IMG/VR virus record: IMGVR_UViG_3300030372_004069
Location: 31,523-95,522 of that record
From: a virus
Lineage: Duplodnaviria > Caudoviricetes
DNA length: 64,000 nucleotides
Reading direction: 5' to 3' (one strand)
The notes below the pieces were generated by a model. The model made no database searches. It had not been told where the DNA came from and saw only the letters and a list, made by a program, of their open reading frames with translations. Below, in pieces: positions 59,810 to 60,310 of the stretch. Within the stretch, counting starts at the first letter, position 1. Each line of letters starts with the position of its first letter. The position numbers and the translations under genes were made by a program.

Positions 59810-60310
59810 GTTGAGGGATATGTGGTTCTACTGCCCAAACAACAGTAAGGGTTCAATCATTTTGGATACGGCATACCAACACCTTATACCCATCTATGGG
59901 TGAGGTCAATGCGAAAGATGGTACACTCCTTATATGATTACTTGCTGTTTAGTAGGGGTTCAGGTGTAAGCGATTCCCAGTAGGTAAATTTGGGCTCCAA
60001 GGTGAAACCTTGATCAGTTAGCCCCACTCTCTCAACTGCTCTAATCTCCTTGTAGTTTCAGGATTAGGGGCGATAGGAAACTACATTGTGGGCAAACGCA
60101 AGGCAGGGGTGAGTAACAATTCAGGAGCATCTTAGATTGCATACTGTGGATAACTACTCTTTGTGTTTGGAGACCTCTTGTACTGCTGATGTTCTAGGAC
60201 ATCTGAAAAGACAGTTTTGAAGTTGTAAGTCCCACACCATTATTTTAGGGCAAGGATCTATGGTTGTCTCTGTTCAGCAGGGAAATTACGTCCTGTAAGT
60301 CCCACCTTGT
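59810..60310 (+). ncRNA. large multi-domain structured non-coding RNA (unassigned)
   Basis: 500 nt with no + strand ORF of 60 aa or more, elevated GC, many long-range complementary segments. Confidence 0.6.

Follow-up and report, generated by a model that had tools for sequence, protein, structure and literature searches.

The window, that is, the whole 64-kb stretch of DNA analysed here, forms the 3′ end of an IMG/VR viral record of 95.5 kb. Around the region of interest (59810-60310), which lies in a variable early region, the closest cultured relatives in BLAST searches against phage records are the Prochlorococcus phages P-SSM2 and P-SSM5 (Kyanoviridae, Salacisavirus). Near-identical terminator-plus-early-promoter repeats of the PeSL type are found at 51630, 59181, 60469 and 60977, and the region occupies one cassette of this repeat run, a unit bounded by a composite terminator hairpin and an early promoter. 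This bears out the cassette system, with early-type promoters and terminator-promoter cassettes, in which a preliminary description had placed the locus. In T4-type phages, PeSL repeats have been proposed as the drivers of a modular exchange among early genes (Arbiol et al. 2010, PMC2839356; Comeau et al. 2014, PMC4122927). The local gene order is phrog_1987 (59334-59759), the RNA array described below, a small gene, an anti-restriction-like phrog_36653 gene and DUF7717, and it is common to P-SSM2. Neither a known function nor solved relatives were found for phrog_1987 and DUF7717, and the synteny gives no functional clue. The surroundings are of the early anti-defence type, as proposed: the next cassette encodes a highly acidic 145-aa protein (60526-60963) matching phrog_36653, "anti-restriction protein" (E 2e-44), with a near-identical terminator-promoter repeat on either side (60445-60511 and 60953-61019). 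A gene for a CP12-domain phage protein (58889-59155; Pfam PF02672, E 2e-07) lies two cassettes before the array. The leader before the phrog_1987 gene (59217-59310) holds a further shuffled RNA module (…CTCTGACTTAGAAGCAGAGACATGA…), which elsewhere is found inside the P3 loop of module D1 or directly after D1, and P-SSM2 carries a copy of module D4 at the equivalent place.

A candidate early-type sigma-70-like promoter is located on the + strand at 59775-59803 (TTGCCA, 17-nt spacer, TG-TATTAT), with 10 of 12 consensus matches and the TG present. It is a PeSL variant in which the −35 lies within the loop of a GGGGT/ACCCC hairpin without a T run. The predicted transcription start is at ~59810, in keeping with the early promoter of its own that had been claimed for the region, and the first helix of D1 starts 7 nt past the −10. 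The region had also been described as an ORF-free block, and indeed no + strand ORF of >31 aa is present in 59810-60310, nor in the wider interval 59760-60329. On its 3′ side lies a 37-aa small protein gene, a homologue of PSSM2_071 (60330-60443, + strand), and the sole terminator-like site downstream of the array (60464-60485) belongs to the intrinsic-terminator-like hairpin plus T run of a PeSL-type repeat (60464-60493, + strand). From the positions of the ORF-free stretch, the promoter, the 37-aa gene and the terminator, the transcription unit would be ~680 nt long, and the modules are shown by the same positions to make up the 520-nt untranslated head of a predicted early transcript that ends with this micro-gene and the terminator. 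The idea of a purely non-coding cargo does not hold, since the array is in one unit with the conserved 37-aa gene, with no terminator between them. The frame of this gene is intact in 36 distinct nucleotide variants, and its variable columns number 25, 17 and 38 at the three codon positions, third positions being the most variable. The micro-protein is acidic (MSPNFAEFLLD…GNEILAVLEDIVEV…). Of 117 distinct contexts upstream of D1, about half have a −10-like hexamer at the same distance. A second conserved context (…GGGGGGACGCATAAAGTGTCCTTAAGGTG|TGAGGG…), seen in about a fifth of the contexts (e.g., L014, L017 and L078), stands in place of the TATAAT-type promoter and may be another promoter class or another module.

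Comparison with related phages shows that 59810-60303 is a head-to-tail chain of four RNA modules, D1 to D4, each predicted to fold independently and each a family of its own in P-SSM2-like (Salacisavirus-type) marine cyanomyoviruses. The region had been introduced as a multi-domain ncRNA or an ncRNA array. The second option is the correct one and a single co-folded 500-nt RNA is not, because each module can be found without the others, and because their order varies and one may be nested in another. D1 (59810-60036, + strand) is a three-way-junction RNA as judged from an alignment of relatives, the helices of the window having been placed by direct reading of its sequence against A3. Its first helix, P1 (59810-59818/60028-60036), pairs GTTGAGGGA with TCTCTCAAC and is extended by P1b (59822-59824/60025-60027). 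P2 (59828-59833/59978-59983) pairs CTACTG with CAGTAG and is followed by P3 (59834-59836/59955-59957); between the 3′ strands of P3 and P2 lies a near-invariant 20-nt loop, GUUCAGGUGUAAGCGAUUCC (59958-59977). The joiner GUAAAUUU (59984-59991) leads to P4 (59992-59996/60020-60024) and P5 (59998-60003/60007-60012; CAAGGT-GAA-ACCTTG). P1 and P5 are as originally read, and CTACTG/CAGTAG, which had been called an alternative pairing, proves to be the true P2 by comparison with relatives. The proposed helix GCCCAAA/TTTGGGC fails because its GGGC pairs instead with a downstream GCCC as the covarying P4.

The helices of D1 are well supported by covariation. Among 32 distinct minimal copies (~119 nt), 98.2% of cells are paired and 16 of the 30 pairs show compensatory double changes; these values were reached by 0 of 500 shuffles, and slid controls gave 36-56% paired. 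P2 occurs as CUACUG/CAGUAG, CCAUAG/CUAUGG, CCUAUG/CAUAGG, CUCUAG/CUAGAG and CCCGUA/UACGGG, and P4 as GGACU/AGUCC and GGUCU/AGACC. G-U pairs are found on the + strand only (e.g., in 25 of 32 copies at one P3 pair), and their frequency indicates that the + strand, at the level of RNA, carries the structure. The 19-mer of the loop is identical in 138 of ~162 copies located by an independent anchor (TAAATTTGG...GGTGAAACC), and the remainder differ at one position. The window itself has P1, P1b, P2, P3, P4 and P5 in order, together with the loop and the joiner, and it matches the family model R1 built here (57 bits, E 5e-14) despite an insert of 118 nt, owing to which the 5′ half of that alignment is misplaced. 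The core 19-mer TTCAGGTGTAAGCGATTCC is present in >118 IMG/VR contigs, a lower bound. P-SSM2 and P-SSM5 have a single D1 copy per genome, and in P-SSM2 the minimal D1 occupies an unannotated gap between PSSM2_070 and PSSM2_071 (NC_006883 56700-56818; L001 3221-3339). It is followed directly by a U run, at which the transcript may end. A likeness of the D1 loop to 16S rRNA (complement GGAAUCGCU) was rejected, a 9-nt match being expected by chance about once per five tries.

The P3 loop of D1 is an insertion site. The length from P2 to the near-invariant loop ranges from 10 to 259 nt in discrete classes, and the insert lengths are independent of reading frame. In the window the 118-nt insert is a hairpin, module I (59837-59954, + strand), which is closed by AACAGTAAG/CTTGCTGTT and contains AATCAT/ATGATT and TACCA/TGGTA. 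The two inner helices, as well as CAAG/CTTG, were noted from the single sequence and hold against relatives: in the 11 distinct copies, which measure 63-140 nt, CAAG/CUUG, UGAG/CUCA and GUAG/CUAC are found as covarying forms of the closing helix, and UACCA/UGGUA is replaced by UAUCA/UGAUA. A 39-nt innermost insert at ~59879-59917 is absent from relatives, and RNA contigs from two runs skip this part (59878-59918).

D2 (60038-60084, + strand) is an H-type pseudoknot formed by stem A (60038-60046/60062-60071) and stem B (60052-60059/60077-60084), and it adjoins the 3′ side of D1 in 24 loci. Both stems had been predicted correctly. Across 13 distinct copies the paired cells amount to 99.1%, and double changes occur at 6 of the 8 stem A pairs and at 2 of the 9 stem B pairs, values reached by 0 of 500 shuffles. 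The window row is 100% paired and has the two crossing stems directly after P1 of D1, with loops UCCUU, AG and GGCGAUAG. D4 (60248-60303, + strand) is a hairpin with a short closing helix GGG/CCC (60248-60250/60301-60303), P2 (60253-60257/60290-60294) and P3 (60267-60272/60278-60283), a UUCAG loop and a 3′ internal loop UGUAAGU. The window shows the AGGAU/GUCCU and UCUCUG/CAGRGA stems, the UUCAG loop, the CUAUGGUUG/AAUUAC internal loop and the GUAAGU tail of the family, which is present in >118 IMG/VR contigs (again a lower bound). In 34 distinct copies, P2 is 99.4% and P3 100% paired, 10 of 17 pairs show double changes, and 0 of 500 shuffles reached these values. The closing helix covaries with its context, and one U-G pair is invariant. 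D4 had first been read with a CAAGG/CCTTG helix, which fails since AGGAU has GUCCU as its partner and the module is closed by GGG/CCC. Covariation, which had been named as a test of the helices, is thus found in D1, D2 and D4.

The structural support for D3 (60087-60236, + strand) is weaker than for D1, D2 and D4, and its interior is mostly too conserved for a covariation test. More than 12 copies are known, some upstream of D1 and some 2 kb off. Two of the helices first proposed for it stand: the closing helix TGTGGG/CCCACA (60087-60092/60231-60236), which covaries as GUGGG/CCCAC and UAAGA/UCUUA, and the hairpin GATGT/ACATC (60188-60192/60199-60203), which occurs in the covarying forms GAUGU/ACAUC and GAUAU/AUAUC and whose loop is enlarged by a 45-nt insert in one copy. 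The third, an 11-bp helix, is contradicted by relatives, in which changes in the 3′ strand are uncompensated, with a C-A mismatch in 8 of 12 copies and deletions in 2.

It is also evident that the modules move among related phages. Pieces of the array recur in P-SSM2, P-SSM5 and single-cell viral assemblies in changed orders (BLAST against phage records). In P-SSM2, D4 comes before PSSM2_070 and D1 after it; in L004 a D4 copy is nested within the P3 loop of D1; and in L005 and L006 D1 is directly followed by D4, with neither D2 nor D3. These arrangements show that modules have been exchanged, reordered and inserted into one another's hairpin loops. The joints seen in RNA-library contigs reproduce the rearrangements seen in DNA. 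In PeSL cassettes, as portrayed in the two studies cited above, protein genes are shuffled between repeats (PMC2839356, PMC4122927); here RNA modules are shuffled, and the breaks fall within the cassette, in hairpin loops and where modules adjoin. Among cultured isolates, only P-SSM2-like phages carry the module families. For the 111 D1 copies with enough downstream sequence, at least 14 families are represented by the first gene that follows, the 37-aa gene being the commonest (35 of 111 loci).

D3 and D4 share a border sequence, the 12-mer TGTAAGTCCCAC, which occurs exactly twice in the region, at 60224 and 60294; two or more copies were obtained in 4 of 100 shuffles. The preliminary description had suggested a shared processing or protein-binding signal. 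The two exact copies are real, and no processing site is established by them since the 12-mer combines the GUAAGU loop motif with the 3′ strand of each module's closing helix. More widely, GTAAGTCC terminates at least six module types and is strand-biased (126:24). A search for a pairing partner of GUAAGUCC gave no enrichment: the transcript strand has 24 copies of the complement in 1.75 Mb, close to what chance would give. A possible resemblance of the UGUAA tails to the RegA operator was considered and not adopted.

The region had been called undescribed, and database searches agree. No Rfam 15 match, riboswitches and self-cleaving ribozymes included, was found in 59810-60310 at gathering score or at E up to 10; the models manA, wcaG, glnA, GOLLD and ROOL gave no match there at E up to 10, nor did the minimal D1 and D4 of P-SSM2 match any Rfam 15 family at the same threshold. 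Rfam matches were also 0 in 104 kb from 20 related loci, ARAGORN found 0 tRNA or tmRNA genes in the window and in 60 related loci, plasmids gave no match, and a literature search found no publication describing these RNAs. The RNAs are absent from Rfam, without annotation in the P-SSM2 reference genome and present in ocean RNA libraries. Other origins were considered and rejected. The tandem direct repeats of one short unit that mark a type III toxin-antitoxin RNA (ToxI-like) array are absent, there being no tandem repeats in 59810-60310 and the four modules being mutually unrelated. For a cellular origin, the D1 19-mer gave 5 matches in 596 Gb of prokaryote genomes, in unrelated taxa and as the 19-mer alone (~15 bits), which is the chance level. 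The cyanobacterial ITS-type boxA (GAACCTTGAAAA) is also absent.

The evidence for structure is comparative, not energetic. Folding-energy z-scores against shuffles are +0.92 for the whole region, −1.6 for D1, −1.3 for D4 and ~0 for D2 and D3, and the energy of the whole region is no better than that of shuffles on either strand. Single-sequence folding of the window's D1 gives GCCCAAA/TTTGGGC, the very helix contradicted by relatives. As for transcription, another test that had been proposed, the modules are covered by Logan contigs from four marine metatranscriptome studies, with DNA carry-over possible. Contigs without any difference from the window genotype cover 59849-59944, 60065-60192, 60085-60193 and 60164-60238. 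Cover is used as evidence up to 60444, and such contigs carry neither ends nor strand information. The summed word depth, in which many genotypes are pooled, is 97-5919 for the D1 core versus ~4-70 for most of the upstream gene and 5-340 for the small gene. The modules thus have 10-100 times the depth of the flanks and of the co-transcribed small gene, a weak comparison since conserved cores gather more contigs when many phage genotypes are pooled and since DNA may have been carried over. Contigs also cross the promoter (59670-59878), indicating read-through from the upstream gene or the presence of DNA.

We tentatively favour, at a probability somewhat short of even, the reading that the modules are stable, protein-binding early RNAs acting as a decoy or platform. 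They would act as RNA, whichever gene follows. P1 of D1 starts with the base at which transcription is predicted to begin, which would leave no unpaired nucleotides at the 5′ end, a stabilising arrangement given the general properties of RNase E and RNase J; the D1 helix closing the extreme 5′ end of the transcript may thus shield it against 5′-end-dependent RNases. The compact modules would probably outlive the coding part of the transcript. Binding of at least one conserved protein, of the host or the phage, is most likely the role of the near-invariant loops (the 20-nt loop of D1 and the GUAAGU loops of D3, D4 and other modules), whose invariance points to a conserved macromolecular partner, and the protein-bound modules could then serve as an early decoy or platform. 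This reading is consistent with the covariation in D1, D2 and D4, the independence and nesting of modules, the loop invariance and the variety of downstream genes. The promoter/terminator geometry of a single unit, the cover in RNA libraries and the presence of GTAAGTCC at the ends of at least six module types also argue for it. Against it are the unexceptional folding energies, the contigs across the promoter, and a depth that comes from pooled genotypes and possibly from DNA.

At a third of loci the gene after D1 is the small one, so that a role in cis is conceivable. In a cis-acting regulatory leader, riboswitch aptamers or protein operators would control translation, termination or stability of the next gene, mostly the 37-aa gene, and we regard this as unlikely. 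The array is a 5′ untranslated region, the shortest arrangement puts the ATG of the small gene, the commonest one downstream, ~24 nt after D1, D1 is a compact junction with a conserved core, D2 is a pseudoknot of aptamer size, and some D1 copies have a U run directly after P1. However, D1 is not a gene-specific switch, because it precedes at least 14 different and unrelated gene families and not one consistent family or pathway as a riboswitch would. Other modules, up to ~290 nt, may intervene between D1 and the ATG, and in P-SSM2 D1 comes after a gene and not at the transcript start. A conserved expression platform overlapping the closing helix is absent, as the sequence after P1 varies by locus (D2, D4, a U run, another module or a gene leader), and no riboswitch family matches at E up to 10.

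A processing cassette, in which the early transcript would be divided into defined pieces at GUAAGUCC sites by modules that are self-cleaving ribozymes or RNase substrates, seems improbable. Several module types do end in GUAAGUCC on one strand, and the highly conserved cores beside variable peripheral hairpins are like those of small ribozymes; Weinberg et al. are said to have found in 2015 that self-cleaving ribozymes tend to cluster in phage-like loci, which would count in its favour. However, half of GUAAGUCC is a closing-helix strand, contigs span module borders (e.g., 60065-60192 and 60164-60238), and no known ribozyme class is found in the window, in P-SSM2 or in the 104 kb of related loci. 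Very improbable is an antitermination or transcription-control leader, in which D3 would recruit Nus-type factors of the host by way of a boxA-like element, for early read-through of cassette terminators. The D3 consensus has UGCUCUUUA, which we take to be the first 9 nt of an E. coli-type boxA, in 14 copies (e.g., L012, L174 and L195), and D3 is the only module with such a 9-mer; but the window's own D3 reads a degenerate UACUCUUUG (60153-60161), D3 is present in a minority of arrays, UGCUCUUUA outside D3 is without strand bias or enrichment (17 versus 19), and a good terminator ends the unit. An element acting at the DNA level (in recombination, replication or packaging) or a decayed gene, lacking RNA function, can practically be dismissed: the zone is a recombination-prone one of cassettes whose short shared border motifs could be cross-over points, but the helices are kept by compensatory changes, their many G-U pairs would be C-A mismatches on the opposite strand, insert lengths ignore frame, no long ORF is present and the region is represented in RNA libraries.

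A bolder proposal, which we consider speculative and doubtful, is that P-SSM2-like cyanophages keep a pool of exchangeable RNA "parts" (D1-D4 plus at least three further module types), each an effector capturing a different host factor or defence sensor early in infection. If true, trading and nesting of these parts would take place much as with gene cassettes, and the pool would be the RNA equivalent of the adjoining islands of anti-defence genes. P-SSM2-type myoviruses are widespread predators of Prochlorococcus, and they carry this strongly constrained set of RNAs once per genome. With hundreds of copies and clear covariation the families are ready for structural and biochemical work, and the insertion of whole folded modules into each other's loops is an unusual and well-documented case of RNA evolving in a modular way. 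Should proteins of the host or the phage be bound by the modules, a new layer of early host takeover would come to light.

Phage T4 has, in its tRNA cluster, the small stable RNAs C and D, which are non-coding and lie in a variable early or middle region. The present array is like them by this general description and unlike them in that no tRNA is found in the window or in 60 related loci. GOLLD and ROOL are also large, multi-domain, phage-borne orphan RNAs; in contrast to them, and without an Rfam match, the array strings together small modules that are independent of each other, where a single large fold is lacking. Its nearest kin in the literature are manA (RF01745) and wcaG (RF01761), RNA motifs of T4-like cyanophages (Weinberg et al. 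2010, PMC2864571), which are multi-stem, covariation-supported orphan RNAs of marine cyanomyoviruses and, like the present array, are listed as 5′ leaders that are possibly free RNAs. The array has no sequence or model similarity to them, and it differs in comprising several freely combining families nested in each other's loops. manA RNAs self-assemble into cages in vitro (2026 preprint, 10.64898/2026.07.01.735769). The window also carries a full-length manA RNA of its own (Rfam RF01745, 181 bits) at 5546-5743.
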